IMG/VR virus record: IMGVR_UViG_3300004369_000643 | Location: 1-64,000 of that record | Strand: one strand, 5' to 3' | Length of the DNA stretch: 64,000 nucleotides | Source: a virus | In this document: one piece after another, positions 7,241 to 42,871 of the stretch | Numbering within the stretch: position 1 is the stretch's first letter | How the letters are laid out: the number at the start of each line of letters is the position of its first letter | Translations under genes and position numbers: made by a program | Notes under the pieces: model-generated | What the model was told of the DNA's origin: nothing | Databases searched by the model: none | What the model saw: only the letters and a program-made list of their open reading frames with translations

Positions 7241-7559
7241 ACTCACCTCCTTTCAGAGTTTGATCGTCGGGAGTCCGATAGACTCTCACTATCGCCTGTC
7301 CTGATGGCGACTCCCGATTGCTTATGGGCACAGTATGGCATAGGGGTGTGACAGCCGTCAAATCGTTCACTCTAAGCCCGCCAGCAGTAGGTTTGGGGGC
7401 AATATGCTGCCCATACGGTAATAGTCGCTTAGAACGGCTCCCAGAGGGGTATAACGGGTATTCTCAGCCCGTCAGTCTGCGCCCTATTCTGCGGTGGCGT
7501 GGGTGACTGTCACACCCGTCTGGCATACTGGCATTATCACCTAGAGGAGAGGAGATAGC

Positions 7560-7700
7560 GTGATTAGTTTGACCGAATATCTACTACCCGATTGGGTGGC
7601 GGTGACCATGATGGTCGGTGCCAACCTAGTTCCCCTCGCACTCACAGTGCGGGTGTCGTGGATCTCACGCCGGTGCCAGTGTAAGCGGTGCCGGTGGTGA
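7560..7700 (+). CDS. 46 aa membrane peptide with C-terminal CxCxxC
   Basis: manual translation; GGAG SD, own promoter at 7508-7529. Confidence 0.55.
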   Translation: MISLTEYLLPDWVAVTMMVGANLVPLALTVRVSWISRRCQCKRCRW

Positions 7701-7857
7701 CCACCACCGTTCGGGCGCACGCCCAGCCAGTCCCGAAAGTGGTGGCAACCTGAGGCAGTCCAGCCGATATTCGCCCGTGGCGGGGCTTTATGACCGTAGA
7801 AATGGTTAGATCCCCGCCAGAGAAGAGGGAGAGGGTTCTGACGGGGATCTAAATAGT

Positions 7858-7893
7858 TGGTTCCGGTAGGGGAGAACATTCCTACCGGAACCT
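7858..7893. terminator. perfect stem-loop, probable terminator
   Basis: GGTTCCGGTAGG...CCTACCGGAACC. Confidence 0.6.
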
Positions 7894-7907
7894 ATGTCAT
7901 GTTAGTT

Positions 7908-7953
7908 GGGGGATTCTGGTGCCACGTTCCCCCGAACGCCGATTCTTAGTCGG
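7908..7953 (-). ncRNA. hairpin + pseudoknot motif, copy B
   Basis: UGGCACCAGAA linker; GGGGG/CCCCC pseudoknot. Confidence 0.6.
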
Positions 7954-7967
7954 TTATGACGCTAGTG

Positions 7968-8129
7968 TCAGAGCCACTCGAAGATATCGCCGTCTGCGAT
8001 TTCTGAGTAGTCCAGACCCTCGGCGTCGGCAAGAGCGTGCCAGAAATCATCTTCTGTCAACATCCCCCGACGCTCTACGGCGTCCCAATTCACGTGATCA
8101 TGCCACGTGTCTCGGTTGGAACTAGTCAT
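7968..8129 (-). CDS. 53 aa acidic hypothetical protein
   Basis: manual translation MTSSNRDTWHDHVNWDAVERRGMLTEDDFW...; GGGGGTGA SD. Confidence 0.6.
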   Translation of the reverse strand: MTSSNRDTWHDHVNWDAVERRGMLTEDDFWHALADAEGLDYSEIADGDIFEWL

Positions 8130-8206
8130 ATTGTCACCCCCTCTCTGGTGTTGGTTGGTTTATCTATCATCATTATGCCATAAGGGTGTAACACCCCCCT
8201 TAGGAG

Positions 8207-8253
8207 CCGGTAGTTCGGTTGCCACGCCTACCGGAGCGCCGATGCTTAGTCGG
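8207..8253 (-). ncRNA. hairpin + pseudoknot motif, copy C
   Basis: loop CCGGUA pairs with UACCGG. Confidence 0.6.
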
Positions 8254-8280
8254 GGATCTGAGTGGTATGTAGCCACTAGG

Positions 8281-8313
8281 CTACGGCGGTACCACAATTA
8301 CGATAATAATCAA
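8281..8313 (-). CDS. minigene MIIIVIVVPP*
   Basis: AGGGGGTGA SD, TTG start; paralogous to 16014-16049. Confidence 0.55.
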   Translation of the reverse strand: MIIIVIVVPP

Positions 8314-8402
8314 GTGGCATCACCCCCTATCCGGTTCTTCGGGTTCATGTATTCATTGTTGCATACGGATGGCCCGCCGGTCAAATCGTAGCCATAGTTC
8401 CT

Positions 8403-8596
8403 AGAGATAGGGGTATCTCTCGGAGAGATAGGTGAATCGAACGTATGTTCGACGAACGTATGTTCGATGTTAGGTGACCTTAACACCGATAATTCCGATC
8501 AGATTAGTCGGGATATTAGGTGCGCCTAACATTGACAATCCCGATCAGATTAGTCGGGATATTAGGTGTCCCTAACATGGCGAACGCATGTTCGAT
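8403..8596. promoter_or_regulatory. operator array 1: CsoR-like site, 3 LexA boxes, 3 IdeR/DtxR-like cores, 2 IscR/Rrf2-like boxes
   Basis: CGAAC-N4-GTTCG at 8438, 8453, 8581; TTAGG-N4-C(C/T)TAA at 8470, 8516, 8562; CCGATCAGATTAGTCGG twice. Confidence 0.75.
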
Positions 8597-8817
8597 TTCT
8601 TCGACGCTGGGGACACCATAGGTTATTTATGGAGGATATGGCGAAAGCGAGTGTGGGGGCGGGTGAGAGAGTCCCGAATGGTGAAGAAAGAAAAGGCTGC
8701 AGGCAGGGTCAAATAGTCCAGCAAATAAAAATACATTGGCTGGACTGTTTCGGGGTGAAACACGGGTGGTTGGGGCATGAAAAAGCCCCCCGACTCGGTT
8801 GAGCCGGAGGGCCTTCG

Positions 8818-8838
8818 CTATGGCGGCGGTACTGCCAT
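8818..8838 (-). CDS. minigene MAVPPP*
   Basis: AAAGGGGTGA SD 6 nt before ATG; intrinsic terminator follows. Confidence 0.5.
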   Translation of the reverse strand: MAVPPP

Positions 8839-9215
8839 GTACCATCACCCCTTTCGTGGTTGGTGCGAATGGTTGGTAGTCTTTCAATCGGCTCCCCCGC
8901 ACTTCCTGTGGCACTACCTGTGCTGGGTTCTGTAGCCGTATCTTTTATGTACCTTCATACTATCGTTGGGGTGTGACAGTACCAACCTGCGGGTAGGGCT
9001 GTAACACGATTGTAACATTCACAAAAATATCCAAAAAAGTTTGCAAAAAAAGGTTGACAAACACGGGCGGGCGGGAAAGTTCGCAAAAAGTGTCGCATTT
9101 ACGAACGATTCGTGCAGCGGCAGCACGGCGAGACAGTCCAGCCGCCAAGCAGCAACTGCTGGACTGTTTCAGGGTAAACAAAAACCCCTCAGGCCGTAGC
9201 CCAAGGGGTAATGTT

Positions 9216-9262
9216 GCTAAGTTTCTGTTGCCACCTACTTAGCGAGGCCGGAACTTATCCGA
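9216..9262 (-). ncRNA. hairpin + pseudoknot motif, copy D
   Basis: CCU-loop-AGG UGGCAACAGAA; GCUAAGU pairs with ACUUAGC. Confidence 0.6.
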
Positions 9263-9265
9263 TAA

Positions 9266-9514
9266 TCACCAGTCCAACTGGAACTCGGCCATGATCTCAG
9301 CCCGAGTCATAGTCTCGTCGGTAGCGTAGTTGACTACTGCGTAGTCATCATCAGCCATATCACCGAAACAAGGCCACAAGTAGCCAGCCACCATACGGTG
9401 CCCGTTGCTACTCCACCGGTCGAACCACTGTGCGGCTGCTTCCATGATAGAATCGCACTCAATGTCGATTCCACCCGAATAGCAATAACCGCCATTCAGC
9501 GTGTAGGTAATCAT
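9266..9514 (-). CDS. hypothetical protein
   Basis: AGGAGGTGA SD, own promoter. Confidence 0.7.
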   Translation of the reverse strand: MITYTLNGGYCYSGGIDIECDSIMEAAAQWFDRWSSNGHRMVAGYLWPCFGDMADDDYAVVNYATDETMTRAEIMAEFQLDW

Positions 9515-10188: not shown

Positions 10189-10323
10189 ATGACAACGTAC
10201 ACAGTTTGGGTTGGGGGTATCCCCGACGTTGAGCGAGTAACCTACGCCAAAGCCGTCGAAGTTTCTGACGGTTGGATTGCTGATGGATACGACGACGTGG
10301 TTATCGAAAAAGAAAGCGAGTAA
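10189..10323 (+). CDS. small hypothetical protein
   Basis: GGGGTGA SD; MTTYTVWVGG...; promoter at 10140-10161. Confidence 0.6.
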   Translation: MTTYTVWVGGIPDVERVTYAKAVEVSDGWIADGYDDVVIEKESE

Positions 10324-10355
10324 CCTACGCCAAAGCCGTCGAAGTTTCTGACGGT
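10232..10355 (+). repeat. 41 bp exact direct repeat (10232-10272 and 10315-10355)
   Basis: AGCGAGTAACCTACGCCAAAGCCGTCGAAGTTTCTGACGGT twice. Confidence 0.9.
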
Positions 10356-15026: not shown

Positions 15027-15305
15027 ATGATGAAACACTATTACATAGGCATCCGCATGATGGCTGACCGTATCGGTCTTGACCCTTGGGATGTTCACCT
15101 GCCTACGTTGCGCACGTTCGTTCGTGACGCTGAGGGTGCACCCACTTCACGGTTCTGGTTCGGTTCCCCTTGCCGGTTTATCCGATCGGTGGACATCGCC
15201 GTTCACGTTTGGTTGCCCGATGCACTCATGGAGCGCCACCCTATGCTAGCGTGCTACCTGCGCACCACTAGCCCCCGATGGGGTAAGGCATGGAGGTCGT
15301 GGTAA
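15027..15305 (+). CDS. hypothetical protein
   Basis: leaderless ATG 6 nt after TATACT. Confidence 0.55.
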   Translation: MMKHYYIGIRMMADRIGLDPWDVHLPTLRTFVRDAEGAPTSRFWFGSPCRFIRSVDIAVHVWLPDALMERHPMLACYLRTTSPRWGKAWRSW

Positions 15306-15841: not shown

Positions 15842-15940
15842 CTGTTCTTTCCTTTCTTCTTGATACTGTCATAGTATCAGCGAGGTGTGTCGATCACAAC
15901 CTGTCTCGGTCGATGTAACACGACTGTAACAAAGTGGGTT

Positions 15941-15986
15941 GACCGGTTCTGTTGCCACGCTCCGGTCAGCGCCGACTCTCAGTCGG
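15941..15986 (-). ncRNA. hairpin + pseudoknot motif, copy E
   Basis: loop GACCGG pairs with CCGGUC. Confidence 0.6.
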
Positions 15987-16013
15987 GGGTGGTGAGGTGC
16001 TGTAGCCTCACGG

Positions 16014-16049
16014 CTACGGCGGCTCCACGATTATGATGATCATCATCAA
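16014..16049 (-). CDS. minigene MMMIIIIVEPP*
   Basis: perfect AGGAGGTGA SD, TTG start. Confidence 0.55.
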   Translation of the reverse strand: MMMIIIIVEPP

Positions 16050-16144
16050 GTGGAATCACCTCCTGTCCGGTTCTCTTTCATGACTTCATCTTACCGTTCC
16101 CCCCACGTTCGACAACCTGTGCCGACCGATTTTGTGTCTCTAGT

Positions 16145-16719
16145 AGAGATACCCCCTATCTCTGATAGATATGGGGCGGCTCACAGCAGGAAGGCACGGC
16201 ACTCGCCGTGCTACTCGCCTGTCGGCGGGCGAACCGACCGAGTGTAGATCGGCACCCCTCATGTCAAGTCGAAGCAATCGAACACATGTTCGATCAGAGC
16301 CGACCTCACCCGACCGAACACATGTTCGATCCGACCGAAACCCGACCGAACTAGTCGGGAATCAAACCCGACCAACCTAGTCAACAATCAAAAGCCGACC
16401 AACTAGGTCAACAATCAAACCCGACTGAACTAGTCGGGAATCGAAACCCGACCAAACCAGTCAACAATCAAAAGCCGACCAACTAGGTCAACAATAAAAG
16501 CCGACCAGAACAGTCGGGAATCAAAGCCGACCAGAACAGTCGGGAATCAAAGCCGACCAAACCGGTCGGGAATCAATCGAACACACGTTCGATCCGAACG
16601 AGAACGTGAACACAATCACAAAGCGAACACATGTTCGATCAACAACACCAACAATCGAACAAACGTTCGATCAACCAAAGCCGACCCCAATGTTACAGTT
16701 TGATGACAAACTTGACAAA
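16145..16719. promoter_or_regulatory. operator array 2: CsoR-like site, 5 LexA boxes, 9 tandem IscR/Rrf2-type boxes, PhoB/OmpR-like direct repeats
   Basis: CGAAC-N4-GTTCG at 16279, 16315, 16578, 16624, 16656; CCGAC-N7-GTC(GG/AA) x9 at 16338-16573. Confidence 0.75.
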
Positions 16720-16822
16720 GGCAAAGCGATGTGCTGCAGGGCCTCGGGACTTTTCGAGGGTGACTTCATAGCGGGGGCGTTGGTGTGACATATTTTTAGG
16801 TGTGGTTGTGGTTTGTGTTATC

Positions 16823-18709
16823 TCATGGTTTGGTGTTGAGTATGTTTTGGATTGCGGTTTGGGTGATGGCTGGTTGTGTTTTTTGGGTTTTGTTTTGTAG
16901 GGTGTTGTAGATGTGTTGGTCTATGGTGTTGGGGTTGATGAGGTTGTGTATTGTGGCGGGTTGTGTTTGTCCGATGCGGTGGATTCGGGCGCAGGTTTGG
17001 TGGTATTTGGCGGGTGTCCATGGGGCTTCGATGAAGAGCATGTTGTTTGATGCGGTTAGGGTGTGTCCGTGTGCTGCTGCGTCTATGGAGATGACGATGT
17101 TTTTGCAGTTTGTGTTATTCATGAATTCGTGTTTTGCGGTTTCGGTCTTTTGGGGGTTTTGGCCTCCGATGATCATTGGGGCGTTTAGTTCGTTGGCTAG
17201 GGTTTGTACTATGTGGCGGTGGTGGGCGGCGATGACTATTTTTTGTCCTGAGTTGTTGGCGTTTTCGATCCATTCTAGGGCGTGGGGGATTTTGGATTGG
17301 GCGGCGATTTTTCTGAGTTCTGTGAGTTGGATGAGGTTTTCGTAGTTTTGTGTTGCGTAGTGTGCTCGGATTCGGGCGGCTGTGGGGTTGGTGCCTTCGT
17401 TGATGGCGAGTTGTTCTTGTTGTTGTGTGTACCATTCTTGGAGGTCGTTGAGGGCGTGGTTGTACATTGTGCGGTGTTTTTTGTCCATTGTGGTGTGGAT
17501 GGTGTTGTATGTGATTGGTGGTAGGTCGGTGAGGACGTGTTGTTTTTCTCTGCGGATGTAGCAGTGGGTTTGTAGTTTGTTGAGTAGTTCTTTGTTGTTG
17601 GTTGATCCGTGTATTTGCCAGTGTCCCCAGTTGTCTCTGTAGGCTCCGCAGTAGCGTTTGTAGAAGTTCCAGCGGCCTCCGAAGTTGTCGATGTGTCCTA
17701 GGATTTCTAGTTGGGGTGCGTATTCGGCGGGCATGTTGGTGATGGGGGTGCCGGTGAGGAGTAGGATGTTGCCGGTGGTTGGGATGTTTTTTGCTATGTT
17801 TTTGGCGGCTTTTGTTCGTTGTGCGTCTGGGTTTTTGCAGTAGTGTGATTCGTCTAGGATGAGTGTGTTGTGGTGTTGGTTGTTGAGGTGTTGTTTTTGG
17901 GCGTGGATGTTGGGGTATCCGATGATGGTGTAGTCGGTTTCGGTCAGTTCGGGGGTTTTGCGGCCTTCGATGATTTGGATGGTGCGGTGGGGGAGTGCTT
18001 CTTGGATTTTTGTTTTCCAGTCTTCTGTGAGGCTGGTGGGGCAGATGATGAGGGCGGGGTATTGGTTTGTGTATTCTGTGGTGGCTAGGGCTTGGAGTGA
18101 TTTGCCTAGTCCCATTTCGTCTGCGATGAAGGTGCGTTGTTTTTCGGCGGCGTATGCTACGCCTGCTTTTTGGTAGGGGTAGAGTTGTAGTTGTAGGTTG
18201 GGGATGGTGATGTTTGCGTCGGTTGCTTGGGTGAGTTCTTGGGCGTGTTGTGCTTTTTTGGTTTCGATTTCTGCTTGTGTTTGGATGTGTTCGGGTATGG
18301 GGTGGTTGTATTTGTTTGCCCATTGGATGAGTTCGTGTACGTTGTTGTATGGTGTTTCCCAGTGGTTGTGGTGGGGGTTCCATTTGATGCCGGGGATGGC
18401 TTTGAGTTCGTGGATTTGTAGTGTGTCGTAGGGGACGCTGATTTTTAGGATGTCTTTTTCGAGTCTTATGGTGGTAGCCCCGATTGGGTGGTCGGGTAGT
18501 TGTAGGCGTATTAGTTCTTCGTCCACGTCGATGTTCCATGAGTTGGCGAAGGATATGGCTCGTTTTAGGGCTGGGAGGGGTATTGTCCAGTGTTTGTTGA
18601 GTTTGTCCCAGCGTGCGTGTGGGAATGATGTTTTGAGGGCTGTTATTTCGTCTTTGTTGTATGGTGTGTCTAGGACGAGTTGTGTGCCGTTTAGGTAGAG
18701 TCGTTTCAT
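16823..18709 (-). CDS. SNF2-family (SMARCAL1/HARP-like) helicase
   Basis: ADEMGLGKS, LDESH, LTGTP, Q-x-x-ARIHRIGQ; N-terminal HARP-like W repeats; start at MKRLY. Confidence 0.9.
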   Translation of the reverse strand: MKRLYLNGTQLVLDTPYNKDEITALKTSFPHARWDKLNKHWTIPLPALKRAISFANSWNIDVDEELIRLQLPDHPIGATTIRLEKDILKISVPYDTLQIHELKAIPGIKWNPHHNHWETPYNNVHELIQWANKYNHPIPEHIQTQAEIETKKAQHAQELTQATDANITIPNLQLQLYPYQKAGVAYAAEKQRTFIADEMGLGKSLQALATTEYTNQYPALIICPTSLTEDWKTKIQEALPHRTIQIIEGRKTPELTETDYTIIGYPNIHAQKQHLNNQHHNTLILDESHYCKNPDAQRTKAAKNIAKNIPTTGNILLLTGTPITNMPAEYAPQLEILGHIDNFGGRWNFYKRYCGAYRDNWGHWQIHGSTNNKELLNKLQTHCYIRREKQHVLTDLPPITYNTIHTTMDKKHRTMYNHALNDLQEWYTQQQEQLAINEGTNPTAARIRAHYATQNYENLIQLTELRKIAAQSKIPHALEWIENANNSGQKIVIAAHHRHIVQTLANELNAPMIIGGQNPQKTETAKHEFMNNTNCKNIVISIDAAAHGHTLTASNNMLFIEAPWTPAKYHQTCARIHRIGQTQPATIHNLINPNTIDQHIYNTLQNKTQKTQPAITQTAIQNILNTKP

Positions 18710-19587
18710 GTTCTGTTTTTGGGGTAGGGGTAGGTTTTGTTGTTTTGTTCGAATTGTTTTTTGAGTTGTTTGGTTTCTTTTTTGTTTTGTCCTAAGATGA
18801 GTGCGTATTTGTGTTTTGCGGGTACTTGTACGGGTGTTGCGTTTGCTTGTACGGTTTTGCTGTGTTGGCGTAGTTGTTGTTCGATGTGGTCGGGTATGTT
18901 GTTCCAGATGATGGTGCTGTCTCTGTTCCAGTTGGGTTGCCATTCGATGTTGAGTTCTTTAGCGTATTTTTTGTATGCTGATCTTGCTCGGAAGAAGCGG
19001 TCTGATACGACTTTGCCTGAGTAGGGGTTGATGTAGCGGGTTGTGCCGCCTGAGTTTTGGCCGAGGTAGTAGAAGTTGCAGGCTTGGTATACGGTGCCTA
19101 GTTCTTTTGCGAGGGGGTCTGAGTAGGCGGTGAATAGGCGGTATTGTGTGTTTTGTACCATCCATTTAATTGACCACATGATGAAGGCGCTTGCAAGGTT
19201 TTTGGGTGACCATGAGATGCAGGCTCCTCGTCCGATGAGGCGTTCTATTTCTTTTGTGTTGTCGCCTAGTAGTTTGCTGAAGGCGTTGGGCATACTGAAT
19301 AGGAGTACGCCTGCGAGTTGGTTGTTGTGGTATGCGCCGAACCAGTGTGTGGTGTAGAGGCTTGTTGTGCCTAACCATTCGTGGCGTTTGATGAATTCTG
19401 TTGCGTCTTTGTGTTCTTGTTCTGTGGTTAGGGGTGTGAATGTGAAGTCGTTGACTGTGAGTAGTTGTGCTTGTTGTAGGGTGATGCCTGCTTGTTGTAG
19501 GTCTTCGTCTAGGTTTTGTAGACGCATTTCGTATTGCCAACAGTGTTCTTTGTTGTATGCCCGTAGTTCGGGGATTGTGGGTGTCAT
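18706..19587 (-). CDS. Mom-like GNAT-fold DNA modification enzyme
   Basis: FIKRHEWLG, PKNLAS, AYSDP...GTVYQACNFYYLG motifs of the Mu Mom family. Confidence 0.7.
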   Translation of the reverse strand: MTPTIPELRAYNKEHCWQYEMRLQNLDEDLQQAGITLQQAQLLTVNDFTFTPLTTEQEHKDATEFIKRHEWLGTTSLYTTHWFGAYHNNQLAGVLLFSMPNAFSKLLGDNTKEIERLIGRGACISWSPKNLASAFIMWSIKWMVQNTQYRLFTAYSDPLAKELGTVYQACNFYYLGQNSGGTTRYINPYSGKVVSDRFFRARSAYKKYAKELNIEWQPNWNRDSTIIWNNIPDHIEQQLRQHSKTVQANATPVQVPAKHKYALILGQNKKETKQLKKQFEQNNKTYPYPKNRT

Positions 19588-19904
19588 AGCCTTACGTGGT
19601 AGCCTTCGTCTAGGAACAGGGGTGTGTTTTGTCCCATGTACGCATTGTAGATGTTGTATTCTGCGTATTCTTCGGCTTCTTCGCCTGTCATACCGTCTCG
19701 CTGTATGAGGATTTTGGTGATTTTTTGTTTACTATAGACTGCGAGCGCTACTCTGTTTACGTTACCGTCGTTGTCTTTTTGATAAACTTCGGTGTGCCCG
19801 ATGCAGGCTTCTTCTAATCCATCTGCGAATAGTGCTTCGGGGTTGACTTCGGTAAGGTAGTCTACCGTGTCTGTGTAAATGGGGATAAATCCGTATGCTT
19901 CCAT
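19584..19904 (-). CDS. conserved phage hypothetical protein
   Basis: ADGLEEACIG...EEAEEYAEYNI...AYMG-x-x-TP. Confidence 0.7.
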   Translation of the reverse strand: MEAYGFIPIYTDTVDYLTEVNPEALFADGLEEACIGHTEVYQKDNDGNVNRVALAVYSKQKITKILIQRDGMTGEEAEEYAEYNIYNAYMGQNTPLFLDEGYHVRL

Positions 19905-19943
19905 ACGTGCTATTTTATCACATACACCGATTGGTGGCAAATT

Positions 19944-20918
19944 TTAGTAGTTGCCGCCGCCGTCTGGTAGCAGAAGTAGTGGGTCTCCGTCGTCGTGGTT
20001 GATGCCGTATGAGGGGAGTTCTTCCCATAGTACTTTGTCGTAGGGGATTTCTGGGTGGTTTCTGCTGAGCCATGTGCGTGTGATTGTGCAGTTGGGGTAG
20101 TAGAATCCGCCGTCGTCTCCCCAGCGCTGGAAGAAGTGTTCGTTGGAGTTTGATCTGTTGGTGAGGAGGTCGTCTGCCATAATTTCGTATGGGACGTGTC
20201 CTCCTGCTTTTTCTACTTCTGATTCGGCTACGAGCCGGTTGCACCAGTGTGCTACGACTGCTGGCCGTTTTACACCACTTTGGGTGGGCTGGGCGGCTCT
20301 GTGTACTGACCGTCCGTGCCATACTTGTAGGTCGCCCCGTCGGGCGTGGAGTTGCACGATTGGGGCGTCGATTTCTTTCCGGTGGTCTTCAAATTCTTGG
20401 CTTGATACGTGCCCTCCGCCGTCTGGGGTGGGCTTTTGTGAAAACCGTTCACGATAGTTTAAATCCCATTTATGTGATCCGGGGATTGCTTCGATTGCAC
20501 CGTTTTCTTCGTTGCAGTCACCTAATGCTACCATTCCTCCAACGTAGTTTTGTGGCCCTACTTCGTGTGGGTGGTTTGCGTCAATGTGCCATCCGGTGTG
20601 TTGTACTGTCATACGTGTTTTGGTGACGTGGAGCGCTACGGCAATGTCGATTTCTTTGAAGAAGTCGTTTACACCTTTGTGGCAGAGCACTTCTTTCAGT
20701 TCGGGGACGTGCATGTACGCTTTGTCGTCTTCCCATCCTATGAAGTGTGGGTTTTCGGGTGTATCGAATTCGGCGTCCCAGCGGTTCCCGTATGAGTCTA
20801 GTGACTCTTCGGGAACTGCGTTGGGGATGATGGCAAAGCCATACTTTTCGTAGAATTCGGCTGTGTCTGTTCTTTCGCCGTTGTATTCGTAATTGTCAAT
20901 AACTGTGATTTCGCTCAT
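19944..20918 (-). CDS. PhyH-family 2OG-Fe(II) dioxygenase
   Basis: WHID, ENGAIEAIPGSH, GDLQVWHGRSVH. Confidence 0.85.
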   Translation of the reverse strand: MSEITVIDNYEYNGERTDTAEFYEKYGFAIIPNAVPEESLDSYGNRWDAEFDTPENPHFIGWEDDKAYMHVPELKEVLCHKGVNDFFKEIDIAVALHVTKTRMTVQHTGWHIDANHPHEVGPQNYVGGMVALGDCNEENGAIEAIPGSHKWDLNYRERFSQKPTPDGGGHVSSQEFEDHRKEIDAPIVQLHARRGDLQVWHGRSVHRAAQPTQSGVKRPAVVAHWCNRLVAESEVEKAGGHVPYEIMADDLLTNRSNSNEHFFQRWGDDGGFYYPNCTITRTWLSRNHPEIPYDKVLWEELPSYGINHDDGDPLLLLPDGGGNY

Positions 20919-31608: not shown

Positions 31609-32583
31609 TCAAATCGTATCGTAAATCTTAGTCGCAATTTCTTCACGAACATCAACGTTTTCATCCAAATAGGCTTTAGTGTTTACACGGCCTTGACCAA
31701 TGTTTTCACCGTTGTACGCATACCAAGCACCCTTCTTGTCAAGAATACCCAAATTAACAGCGATATCCACGATATCTCCAGTTCGGCTGATTCCTTCACC
31801 GTAGGTAATTTCAAATTCTGCTTGTCGGAAAGGGGGAGCAACTTTGTTCTTTACAACTTTGACACGAGTCTTGTTTCCAGAAGCCTCTCCACCGTCTTTT
31901 AATGTTTCAATACGTCGAATGTCCATACGTACCGAAGCATAAAACTTCAGAGCCTTACCTCCGGTTGTTACTTCAGGCGAACCGAACATTACACCAATCT
32001 TTTCACGCAACTGGTTAATCATAATTAACGTTGTCTTTGAGTGGTTCAGGTTTGCGACAATTTTACGCATCGCCTGTGACATGAGTCGTGCGTGCAGCCC
32101 AACATGACTGTCTCCCATCTCACCTTCAATTTCTGCACGAGGGGTCAAAGCCGCAACTGAGTCAACCACGACAACATCAAGCGCACCTGATTCAATCAAC
32201 TTGTTTGTAATAGTTAGAGCCTGCTCACCTGTGTCGGGCTGTGATATTAACAAGTTGTCGATGTCACAACCAATCGCTTTAGCGTAGATAGGGTCAAGTG
32301 CGTGCTCTGCATCAATGAATGCACACTTACCGCCTTGCTTCTGAGCCGCTGCGATGACATGTAGAGCGATAGTGGTCTTTCCTGACGACTCAGGGCCATA
32401 GATTTCGGTCACTCTTCCACGAGGCAGACCGCCAACGCCCAAAGCGATGTCAAGAGCAATTGAGCCGGTTGAGATTGTTTCTACATTCATTGATGCGTTG
32501 TCCCCAAGGCGCATGATTGAGCCTGTACCAAACTGCTTTTCAATTTGGCTGATTGCGTCTTCTAAGAGTTTTTCTTTATCCAT
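31609..32583 (-). CDS. recA: recombinase A
   Basis: [33 protein letters not shown]. Confidence 0.98.
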
Positions 32584-39771: not shown

Positions 39772-40380
39772 ATGGGTAACTATTTAAATGTTGGGTGCGG
39801 TACGCACTACGCTACAGGTTGGGTTAACACCGATGTATGGGAAGACCATGCTACTAAGCCCGATGTGCTGGTTGAGTCAGGAAAGCCATACCCCTTTGAA
39901 GACAATACTTTTGATGCCATTTTCTTAGGCCACGTTTTAGAGCACATGGATTGGAGCGAGGTTGGTGGATTTTTAGAAGACATGAATAGGATTGCTAAGC
40001 CTAATTCACCAATACTTGCTGTGGGGCCTGATGTCTATCGAACAATTAAACGTTGGCATAAAAATCAAGAGCCGTGGAGTATGGTTGAATCTGTAATGGA
40101 GCATCAAGATGTTTACGGCGGGTATACGTCTTTTATTAACTCTGATGCTTATACTGCTACGCCTCCTGACTGGTGGGATGGTGCGGCTCATCACTGGAAT
40201 TGCCACGAAGACCGCATGTTCAGCATTATGTCATCCGTCTTTACGGACTGTTCTGTTTACACTGACAAGATTACGTGCGATGGTACAATGACTAGTTGGT
40301 TAGACAATGAAAATAATATCACTTGGCCTGTTGTAGGCTACTGGCACTGGCAATGCGCCGTACTGGGGTACTCAACATGA
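39772..40380 (+). CDS. class I SAM-dependent methyltransferase
   Basis: LNVGCG...GWVNTD, PFEDNTFD...HVLEH. Confidence 0.85.
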   Translation: MGNYLNVGCGTHYATGWVNTDVWEDHATKPDVLVESGKPYPFEDNTFDAIFLGHVLEHMDWSEVGGFLEDMNRIAKPNSPILAVGPDVYRTIKRWHKNQEPWSMVESVMEHQDVYGGYTSFINSDAYTATPPDWWDGAAHHWNCHEDRMFSIMSSVFTDCSVYTDKITCDGTMTSWLDNENNITWPVVGYWHWQCAVLGYST

Positions 40381-41165
40381 TTCATAATATTGCAGATAAT
40401 CTTCAAAACCTTGCTGTAGATATTGATCTGTTACGCCCTTTGGAGAATAACGCACGACGAGGTAATGTCGATGCGATTATGGCATCTTACAGTAAGTTTG
40501 GTCAGGTAAAACCTATTGTGGCTATAGCAGATGACGCCGGTGACCTTACAGTTATCGCAGGTAACCACCAGTTAGAAGCGGCTAAAAGGTTAGGGTGGCA
40601 ACAGATCGCAGTTTCTGTAGTTGATTTAGACAACGACGATGCACTTGCGTTTGCCTTGGCAGATAATCGTATTTCTGATCTAGGCACAACAGATAATGAA
40701 ATTCTGTATGAGTTGTTAACTGACGTAATTGGCGACGACGAAAACTTTTTTGAAGTTTTAGGCTGGGACGATTTCTCTGTGGCGGCTATAGAAAACACTG
40801 TGATTACTGCCGAGTTGGCTAATGATAGCAATGCTGGATGGACTGCTCCTGAAATTGTTTTTAACGACGTGGGTGTTGACTCTCCGCCCCCCGCTGTACC
40901 TACTCAGAGTAGCGGCACCAATGAGCAGCCCGCCCGCAATCCACAACCGAATACGTCCACGATTGTAACACAGGGTAGCACAAGCACGGGATCGTCAGGT
41001 ACAAGTAATGCATCTATTCAATTTACTCTAGTTTTTGATAGCGCAGAGCAACAATCTAAATGGTATGCTTTTATTAAGTGGCTTAGAGAAAGTCCTGTCT
41101 ATGATGGCGATACAACTTCAGAGAGGTTGTTTGACTTTATTGCCCAGCATTCAGAAATGGGCTAA
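40377..41165 (+). CDS. ParB/Srx N-terminal domain protein
   Basis: NARR, FGQVKPI, VIAGNH, ALADNR. Confidence 0.85.
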   Translation: MIHNIADNLQNLAVDIDLLRPLENNARRGNVDAIMASYSKFGQVKPIVAIADDAGDLTVIAGNHQLEAAKRLGWQQIAVSVVDLDNDDALAFALADNRISDLGTTDNEILYELLTDVIGDDENFFEVLGWDDFSVAAIENTVITAELANDSNAGWTAPEIVFNDVGVDSPPPAVPTQSSGTNEQPARNPQPNTSTIVTQGSTSTGSSGTSNASIQFTLVFDSAEQQSKWYAFIKWLRESPVYDGDTTSERLFDFIAQHSEMG

Positions 41166-42349: not shown

Positions 42350-42871
42350 ATGGATTTAGCAAATATAAAAGATGTGCGTCCCCCTAAATGGACATCTTCG
42401 TGTTATGTTGTTTCTCCTGACTATAAAAAACTTGAGAAGTCAATTAAGAAGTATGGTATTTTAAGTCCTATAGTAATTCAGCCTGACGGAACTATTGTAG
42501 ATGGTTTTCATCGATGGAAGGCTGCAAATGAATTGGGTTTAAGTAAGGTTCCTGTAGTTGTCGTTCAGGTTGACGACATTGAAGCCATGTTATTACACAT
42601 TGACCTAAATAGGTATCGTGGTATAGTTATAGCCAAGTACCTGTCTAATATGATTAGACGTATCCTTCAGTCTGGTAGATACGATCATGAATCGTTGCGA
42701 AGTAAAATGGGACTTACTTCTGAAGAGTTTGACGTTTTAGCAGAAGGCTCTTTGATTAAGATGCGTAAGATTAAGCAGCACACGTATTCACCTGCTTGGG
42801 TTCCCATTGAGTCAGCGACTGGCGAAGATATAAACGTTGAGCGTGTTACTGGACACGCAGAGCAGGTTTAA
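42350..42871 (+). CDS. ParB-like protein (IbrB-like)
   Basis: G..SPIV...IVDGFHR, NRYRG, YS.AW. Confidence 0.8.
   Translation: MDLANIKDVRPPKWTSSCYVVSPDYKKLEKSIKKYGILSPIVIQPDGTIVDGFHRWKAANELGLSKVPVVVVQVDDIEAMLLHIDLNRYRGIVIAKYLSNMIRRILQSGRYDHESLRSKMGLTSEEFDVLAEGSLIKMRKIKQHTYSPAWVPIESATGEDINVERVTGHAEQV

Follow-up and report, generated by a model that had tools for sequence, protein, structure and literature searches.

Why would a phage carry a non-coding 219-bp stretch packed with palindromes, two kinds of which have the form of host repressor operators? The stretch, array 1, occupies positions 8403-8621 of IMG/VR record IMGVR_UViG_3300004369_000643, a linear sequence of 102,594 bp (~69% complete, 46% guanine plus cytosine (GC)) whose first 64 kb form the window analysed here and which probably belongs to an uncultured phage of (freshwater) Actinomycetota. 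A second array at 16145-16669 (array 2) is paralogous to it and follows the same grammar. Since two kinds of box match host LexA and iron operators, it is probable that the phage either senses host repressors or titrates them, and the answer that we favour, tentatively and somewhat short of an even chance, is that array 1 may be a composite upstream control region tying an early transcription unit to host LexA and the host iron repressor. With the same reserve, the two arrays may be paralogous upstream control regions of the early small-gene region, array 1 being a stack of putative protein-binding sites.

Array 1 is a real, strongly non-random and recurrent element. Inverted repeats (perfect arms of at least 5 nt, spacer of 3-9 nt) cover 68% of its 219 bp, versus 11.8% record-wide; it ranks first in the record for palindrome density, windows of array 2 taking second and third place, and every motif named in the preliminary description was found where that description had put it. 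The core CGAAC-N4-GTTCG has eight sites in the 102,594 bp, all within 8438-8594 and 16279-16669, against a chance expectation of ~0.1 (4^-10 per position), and allowing one mismatch gives 13 sites versus 2.75 in block shuffles. The words TTAGG-N4-CYTAA recur at 8470, 8516 and 8562 within a 46-bp tandem unit that starts at 8466, 8512 and 8558. Their positions and period had been described correctly, but not their extent: the fuller form is a 20-bp palindrome, ATGTTAGG-N4-CCTAACAT.

The perfect SOS-type cores number three in array 1 and five in array 2, and four of the eight are embedded in the full 16-mer, TCGAAC(N4)GTTCGA, which is the LexA consensus of Mycobacterium tuberculosis (PMC3381160). 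Their earlier assignment as LexA boxes is supported by this published form and by the recurrence of the same motif three to four times upstream of lexA in four Actinomycetota metagenome-assembled genomes (MAGs; G006, G007, G009 and G010, with host assignment resting on the MAG bins). Each of these has one perfect and two or three one-mismatch boxes within ~200 bp, measured from the LexA DNA-binding domain, and the central words of the boxes (GGGT, AGGT, ATGT) are of kinds that also occur in the phage clade.

For the iron-type box, a strict pattern (TGTTAGG-N4-CCTAACA) was sought in a sample of 201 class-level actinobacterial genomes, with the reversed pattern as control. It gave 14 sites in 13 genomes versus none for the control, and 12 of the 14 lie directly upstream of genes for FTR1, SBP_bac_6 (Fe3+-type binding protein) or siderophore-interacting proteins (SIP/Peripla_BP_2). 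The slightly shorter GTTAGG-N4-CCTAAC is single-copy in G007, G009 and G010, directly upstream of the FTR1 iron-permease gene, and in G007 and G010 it falls between a -35-like hexamer (TTGACA and TTGCAA, respectively) and the FTR1 start codon; in the MAGs the palindrome appears to cover the spacer and -10 of FTR1 promoters. This iron-gene context suggests that some Actinomycetota use ATGTTAGG-N4-CCTAACAT as a variant iron operator, apparently not described before. Its binder would probably be a host repressor of the DtxR/IdeR family, and a Fe_dep_repress domain of that family is present in all five MAGs searched. The IdeR/DtxR call made from the sequence thus stands as to gene context and falls as to the canonical 19-bp form, which is spaced differently. 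Sites of the variant operator were noted in L181, L182 and L183 (1501 in each) and in L185-L198, with two copies 21 bp apart in L192 and L194.

The preliminary description had also proposed looking for equivalent arrays in related phage contigs, and similar box arrays were found. Adjacent pairs of the SOS-type box occur in 105 IMG/VR stretches, ~50 of which have three or more boxes within 600 bp. The strict iron box occurs in at least 120 viral stretches; since single copies are near chance expectation on a rough estimate, only multi-copy arrays count as evidence. The fullest case is a 128-kb relative, G001, with six SOS-type boxes and at least 22 iron-type boxes (TGTTA-N8-TAACA), the latter within 14 kb and compared with 1-2 strict copies per host-class genome. 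They are grouped into at least six arrays in intergenic DNA preceding early genes, and neighbouring boxes make up TTAACA-18-TAACAT promoter-like units that account for 5 of the 25 promoter-like sites of G001. Within 600 bp of SOS-type boxes in the viral loci, we counted 19 of the 24 occurrences of TTAGG-N4-CCTAA (3.7 expected) and 124 of 333 DnaA-box words (51.5 expected). Both box types co-cluster in L045, L018, L069 and L074, which have few or no detectable genes in common with the phage. In the first three of these a TAGTCGGG iteron end adjoins a ATTAGGTG..CCTAACAT box, near-identical to iron-box palindrome 2 of array 1, and among those three detectable homologs are limited to L069 (SSB and a small open reading frame (ORF)). 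The field that follows the helicase gene, where array 2 lies, varies by lineage: nine CCGAC-N7-GTCGG in the phage, six AAGTTACCCGGCAGTAACTT in G001, seven SOS-type boxes in L002 and at least ten DnaA-box words in L006. In L002, L003, L005, L006, L007 and L008, one to seven SOS-type boxes immediately follow the 3′ end of the helicase gene.

Does the array have anything to control? It had been described as lacking an obvious target gene, and this does not hold: a leftward sigma-70-like promoter candidate adjoins it, beginning 18 bp from the first palindrome and facing a mini-ORF, a repeated RNA-like element and a 53-residue gene (Table 1). Array 2 is laid out similarly. It is bounded on one side by the 3′ end of the SNF2 helicase gene (16823-18943, minus strand) and on the other by a leftward promoter that is homologous to 8355-8384, with the order promoter (TTGTCG, 16 nt, TAAGAT), AGAGATA palindrome, SOS-type boxes, iterons and SOS-type boxes again, and the DNA just to its left (15946-16074) is 76.5% identical to 8213-8338. 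Computed from these consensus promoters rather than mapped starts, the upstream distance of the AGAGATA palindrome centre from the inferred start is ~63 bp in array 1 and ~73 bp in array 2; the difference amounts to roughly one helical turn, which would suit a regulator that binds close to the promoter. That the boxes might simply repress the promoter at about 8380 had been named in advance as an outcome that would count against a decoy, and the array's tie to a promoter and the placing of boxes within promoter-like units in G001 are of that kind. A cis-regulatory region that would use host repressors is favoured jointly by the link to a promoter, by the phase that the palindrome keeps in both arrays and by the boxes set within promoter-like units in G001.

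Table 1. Predicted sites in the two arrays and features downstream of the array 1 promoter candidate
Region	Feature	Position	Strand	Remark
Array 1	Palindrome AGAGATA-GGGG-TATCTCT	8403-8420		
Array 1	Additional AGAGATAGG half-site	8424-8432	+	
Array 1	Two abutting SOS-box-type palindromes CGAACGTATGTTCG	8437-8467 (starts 8438, 8453)		15 bp start-to-start
Array 1	Iron-box-type palindrome 1, ATGTTAGG-TGAC-CTTAACAC	8467-8486		Two arm mismatches
Array 1	Iteron CCGATCAGATTAGTCGG, copy 1	8495-8511		CCGAY...AGTCGG family
Array 1	Iron-box-type palindrome 2, ATATTAGG-TGCG-CCTAACAT	8513-8532		
Array 1	Iteron CCGATCAGATTAGTCGG, copy 2	8541-8557		
Array 1	Iron-box-type palindrome 3, ATATTAGG-TGTC-CCTAACAT	8559-8578		
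Array 1	Third SOS-box-type palindrome CGAACGCATGTTCG	8581-8594		
Left of array 1	Sigma-70-like leftward promoter candidate: TTGACC, 18 nt, AACAAT with upstream TG	8384..8355	-	Consensus scan
Left of array 1	Pro-Pro-stop mini-ORF MIIIVIVVPP, Shine-Dalgarno-led	8281-8313	-	Downstream of the 8384..8355 promoter candidate
Left of array 1	Repeated RNA-like element	8207-8253		Downstream of the promoter candidate
Left of array 1	53-residue gene	7968-8129		Downstream of the promoter candidate
Array 2	Palindrome AGAGATA-CCCCC-TATCTCT, 5-nt centre	16145-16163		Counterpart of 8403-8420
Array 2	SOS-type boxes	16279, 16315, 16578, 16624, 16656		
Array 2	Nine tandem units of ~26-27 bp, CCGACC-N-AGTC(GGG/AAC)AATCAAA	16338-16575		

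Both the binders and the direction of regulation are inferred, as follows. Once the phage genome has entered the cell, the array would be occupied by host LexA together with an iron-responsive repressor of the host (probably a DtxR/IdeR-family member). A phage factor on the proximal palindrome would, jointly with them, set the activity of the leftward early unit, which comprises the Pro-Pro-stop minigene, RNA-like element and small genes. Cleavage of LexA would free the array, iron limitation would release the iron repressor from it, and the outcome would be early expression tied to the DNA-damage and iron status of the host; the titration of repressors by accumulating genomes would follow as a physical side-effect. 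The record encodes a full-length bacterial-type RecA (31609-32583, minus strand; Pfam RecA at E 1e-137, plus RecA_C), which bears on LexA-based control because RecA filaments trigger LexA self-cleavage, and which could provoke that cleavage here. An integrase (PF00589), a LexA-type DNA-binding domain, an S24 peptidase, a clear CI-type helix-turn-helix (HTH) and DtxR-type and CsoR-type domains were all sought in the ~69%-complete record and none was found, in agreement with the earlier remark that no cognate regulator is encoded in the window.

Operators for host repressors on phage genes have precedents: DtxR at tox of corynephage beta, and LexA at GIL01, at CTXphi and at tum of coliphage 186. 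Expression of these phages therefore follows the iron or DNA-damage status of the host. The DNA studied here would resemble them, judging by form, in carrying iron-repressor and LexA operators. Unlike those mostly temperate phages, which have one or two operators over the promoter of a named gene, it has three plus three host-type sites of two kinds, stacked with putatively phage-specific sites upstream of an early promoter. Control of phage genes by a host repressor is known from isolated cases (the diphtheria toxin gene under DtxR; several LexA switches); in the present DNA two host-operator types are stacked in arrays that recur across many uncultured phage contigs. If host LexA and the iron repressor do bind, abundant freshwater-type actinophages may sense host DNA damage and iron supply in the first minutes, or alternatively may drain the host's repressors; either, if true, would be a new link of phage infection to iron and stress physiology in hard-to-culture hosts. 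A by-product is the predicted iron operator itself, for a subset of Actinomycetota, with a spacing unlike that of the textbook IdeR box.

Several points weigh against a control region run by host repressors. The canonical DmdR1/IdeR box is the 19-mer TTAGGTTAGGCTAACCTAA, with TTAGG and CCTAA nine bases apart (PMC7174319). Unlike that operator, the iron boxes of the array have these words at a spacing of four; they are found nowhere else in the phage, and as a control element the box would control very little here. The promoter is a consensus match only, from a scan that gave no excess of matches over shuffles, and no convincing rightward promoter was found over the third SOS box. LexA and DtxR-type repressors usually act over the -35 or -10, and the host-type boxes lie ~90-240 bp upstream of the inferred start, off both hexamers, with the SOS-box centres at ~96, 111 and 240 bp. 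The host assignment, too, comes from MAG bins alone, and the lexA contigs of these MAGs have 59-67% GC versus 46% in the phage.

The host group was sought through MAG contigs bearing relatives of a conserved 92-residue early protein, which is encoded between the arrays (15027-15305, plus strand) on the strand opposite to its neighbours. The contigs belong to MAGs labelled Candidatus Nanopelagicales, Actinomycetota and Acidimicrobiia; since they may be mis-binned phage DNA, the host link is a lead and not proof. The protein has 55-66% identity in seven phage contigs and 38 invariant residues, including WFGSPC and TSPRWG; it matched no Pfam or PHROG family, and an AlphaFold model from a 7-sequence alignment had a predicted local distance difference test score (pLDDT) of 54. 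Among other genes, the portal shares ~40% identity with its counterparts in Brevibacterium and Gordonia phages, and the SNF2 helicase ~30% with helicases of Arthrobacter phages. Cultured-phage DNA (INPHARED) gave no match to 7500-9500 or 8200-8700 by megablast or blastn.

Not all boxes look like host operators. The AGAGATA palindrome had been called CsoR-like, and both copies do have a G/C tract flanked by AT-rich inverted repeats. However, matches to GAGATA-N4/5-TATCTC in the 201 genomes are almost all inside ORFs, mostly in one conserved ATPase-like gene of genomes with 31-35% GC; the reversed control gave a similar count and no operator was evident among the matches, so that the call is not upheld. 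Nor is the IscR/Rrf2 call for the iterons. The IscR core YYGAC-N7-GTCRR is fitted by five of the nine array 2 units (as CCGAC-N7-GTCGG), while both array 1 iterons read CCGAT-N7-GTCGG, one half-site off that core; the 300 bp preceding the Rrf2 genes of five MAGs contain no GAC-N7-GTC, and CCGAC-N4-CTAGTCGG had four matches in 121 genomes versus ~23 for the reversed control. The CCGAY...AGTCGG family is instead common to both arrays and to the hairpin of the neighbouring RNA-like repeat, and the two co-vary: the hairpin reads CCGAT...TTAGTCGG beside array 1 and CCGAC...CAGTCGG beside array 2. Because host-class genomes lend no operator support, the hairpin co-varies and the iteron field changes with lineage, we read both classes as phage-specific, and the AGAGATA palindrome is probably the site of a phage-specific regulator.

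The record offers some candidate DNA-binding proteins. One, of 129 residues (record 68304-68693, plus strand), combines a helicase-associated (HA) domain with a Mor/sigma-70 region-4-like HTH (HA-HTH) and has a near-consensus promoter upstream; another, of 87 residues (record 89829-90092), has a weak Rrf2-like winged helix. Two ParB_N proteins are encoded at 40323-41165 and 42350-42871, in a PAPS-reductase/methyltransferase/MazG cluster. A reading of the arrays as partition sites was tried and rejected, these genes sitting in a cluster typical of DNA-modification genes and not beside the arrays.

Could the arrays act mainly as a sponge, as the preliminary description proposed, titrating host LexA and the iron repressor as phage genomes multiply and so de-repressing SOS and iron-uptake genes with no phage protein? 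Titration by multicopy operators is an established effect: the E. coli datA locus (for DnaA) and the Fur titration assay show that operator clusters can lower the free regulator and de-repress its regulon. Those are chromosomal or artificial plasmid systems for one regulator each, and to our knowledge no natural phage-borne sponge for several regulators has been described. The idea is kept alive by the placing of the boxes upstream of the promoter and not over it, by the missing cognate regulator domains and by the number of iron-type boxes in G001 relative to host-class genomes. Two box classes do share their form with host operators, and the dense DnaA-box clusters of relatives L006, L057 and L074 would add a further titratable host protein. 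We nevertheless regard it as unlikely. The absence of a cis target, which it called for, is not what is seen: the arrays adjoin promoters and the G001 boxes lie within promoter-like units, both of which ordinary cis-regulation explains. The phage itself has three iron-type boxes only, and the AGAGATA palindrome and the CCGAT iterons, which make up half of array 1, are unlike host sites, while a pure decoy would need neither. A broader form, in which clade-wide arrays of host-operator look-alikes (SOS, iron and, in relatives, DnaA) were selected to sequester host regulators during replication, seems to us similarly doubtful; were it true, DNA alone would re-programme host control of DNA damage, iron uptake and replication.

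Iteron fields, the DnaA clusters of relatives, adjacency to the replication module and a likeness to phage T5 keep alive a role in replication or DNA handling. Here the fields would serve an initiator, phage-encoded or, in relatives, host DnaA, a proposal that we consider improbable; the LexA-type and iron-type sites would then be accessory or regulatory, or else the region would have a role like that of the T5 injection stop, and these additions we find no less doubtful. The palindromic iterons are regularly spaced (46-bp period in array 1, nine units in array 2). Array 2 abuts a module encoding SNF2 helicase, primase-helicase, SSB and ThyX, the composition of the record switches exactly there, and the lineage-specific field after the helicase gene shows variation typical of initiator/iteron pairs. 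DnaA-box words are enriched near SOS-type boxes, as given above, and many related contigs end within 0.2-2 kb of that field. The arrays resemble iteron origins such as lambda ori and F sopC-type fields in their spaced palindromic repeats, accessory sites and, for array 2, replication genes; they differ in having neither an identified adjacent initiator or partition gene nor a demonstrated AT-rich unwinding element, and in forming two fields, each with a promoter. The injection-stop (iss) region of T5 and its relatives, large lytic phages, is likewise non-coding and in the part expressed first, crowded with direct and inverted repeats and palindromes and holding ordered host-protein sites, eight DnaA boxes, whose role is itself a hypothesis (Davison, bioRxiv 10.1101/866236). 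In contrast, none of the 24 DnaA boxes of the phage is within 600 bp of either array (relatives L006, L057 and L074 do have them there), and no terminal repeats were seen in the record, self-BLAST finding no long repeats. Array 1 has two iteron copies only, with no initiator gene identified beside it. An origin call at array 1 from GC skew was tried and rejected, as the cumulative skew curve stays level from 1 to 16 kb and climbs from array 2 onward, with neither a minimum nor a turning point at 8.4 kb.

It is more improbable still that every box is a target of the phage's own proteins and that the resemblance to host sites reflects coincidence or mimicry of LexA and iron-repressor specificity. 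Candidates are encoded (the HA-HTH protein, the Rrf2-like protein, the two ParB_N proteins and the 92-residue early protein of unassigned fold), and in another lineage (L054, L064 and others) an HA-HTH gene lies ~0.5 kb from, or directly behind, paired SOS-type boxes, and it is the final gene ahead of a field of such boxes. Yet the match to host operators extends over 10 specified bases in one motif and 14-16 in an independent second one, so that chance is an unlikely cause, and the ~69%-complete record yielded no LexA-like or DtxR-like DNA-binding domain. The HA-HTH protein was rejected as binder of the SOS-type box, since 0 of 42 close homologues have GAAC-N4-GTTC within 3 kb and the adjacency in the other lineage reflects gene order. 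Least of all do we credit an array that is transcribed and acts as an RNA of consecutive hairpins: every palindrome could form a hairpin and the CCGAT...GTCGG unit resembles that of the RNA-like element (7940-7953, 8242-8253), but host promoters carry the same palindromes as putative DNA operators, neither strand is favoured (arm mismatches would pair as G-U on the plus strand in one unit but on the minus strand in the others), Rfam gave nothing credible over 1-30000, and a terminator-like hairpin at ~8780-8815 (in minus-strand reading; missed by the scan) separates the array from the upstream leftward promoter.

To return to the setting of the putative control regions, 1-16.7 kb of the record holds small genes, mostly leftward, at ~52% GC without skew. 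A leftward module for replication and nucleotide metabolism begins at 16.8 kb (SNF2 helicase, Mom-like protein, PhyH, ThyX, primase-helicase, SSB and thymidine kinase), and the structural genes come after it; no tRNAs were found. At array 2 (16.7 kb) the composition changes to ~45% GC with positive skew. Over 16800-20000, which includes the SNF2 helicase and Mom-like genes, plus-strand GC skew is +0.47 to +0.49 and AT skew -0.57; this makes the coding (minus) strand very rich in C and A. Near array 1 itself, the 112-residue protein encoded to its left (7541-7879) has no relative in IMG/VR, two of three candidate ORFs in 8622-8914 have none among 2.7 Mb of collected loci, and L102 has the 53-residue gene in common with the phage but not array 1.

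The DnaA-box clusters of relatives, dense in perfect TGTGGATAA words, are at 12000-12290 in L006 (IMGVR_UViG_3300044491_002068), 2800-2880 in L057 and 4960-5020 in L074; they adjoin SOS-type boxes, at the position of array 2. Almost all contigs among L002-L012 end 0.2-2.2 kb past the helicase gene, in or just past the repeat field, and in L006 and L054 the sequence passes there into long CT-rich or GGCGAGG repeats of low complexity. Such ends could be assembly breaks at repeats, a hypervariable early region or the genome end.

Further Shine-Dalgarno-led mini-ORFs with a Pro-Pro-stop ending are present on the minus strand at 8818-8838 (MAVPPP) and 16014-16049 (MMIIIIVEPP), and every mini-ORF of this kind has a leftward promoter-like site upstream and a hairpin after it. 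TGTAACA or its complement forms direct repeats just upstream of other leftward promoter-like sites (8997-9016 and 15915-15932) and at the right edge of array 2 (16691-16719), and similar words flank the box fields of L002, L045 and L057. The early region also contains a perfect 41-bp direct repeat, with copies at 10232-10272 and 10315-10355, 83 bp apart.

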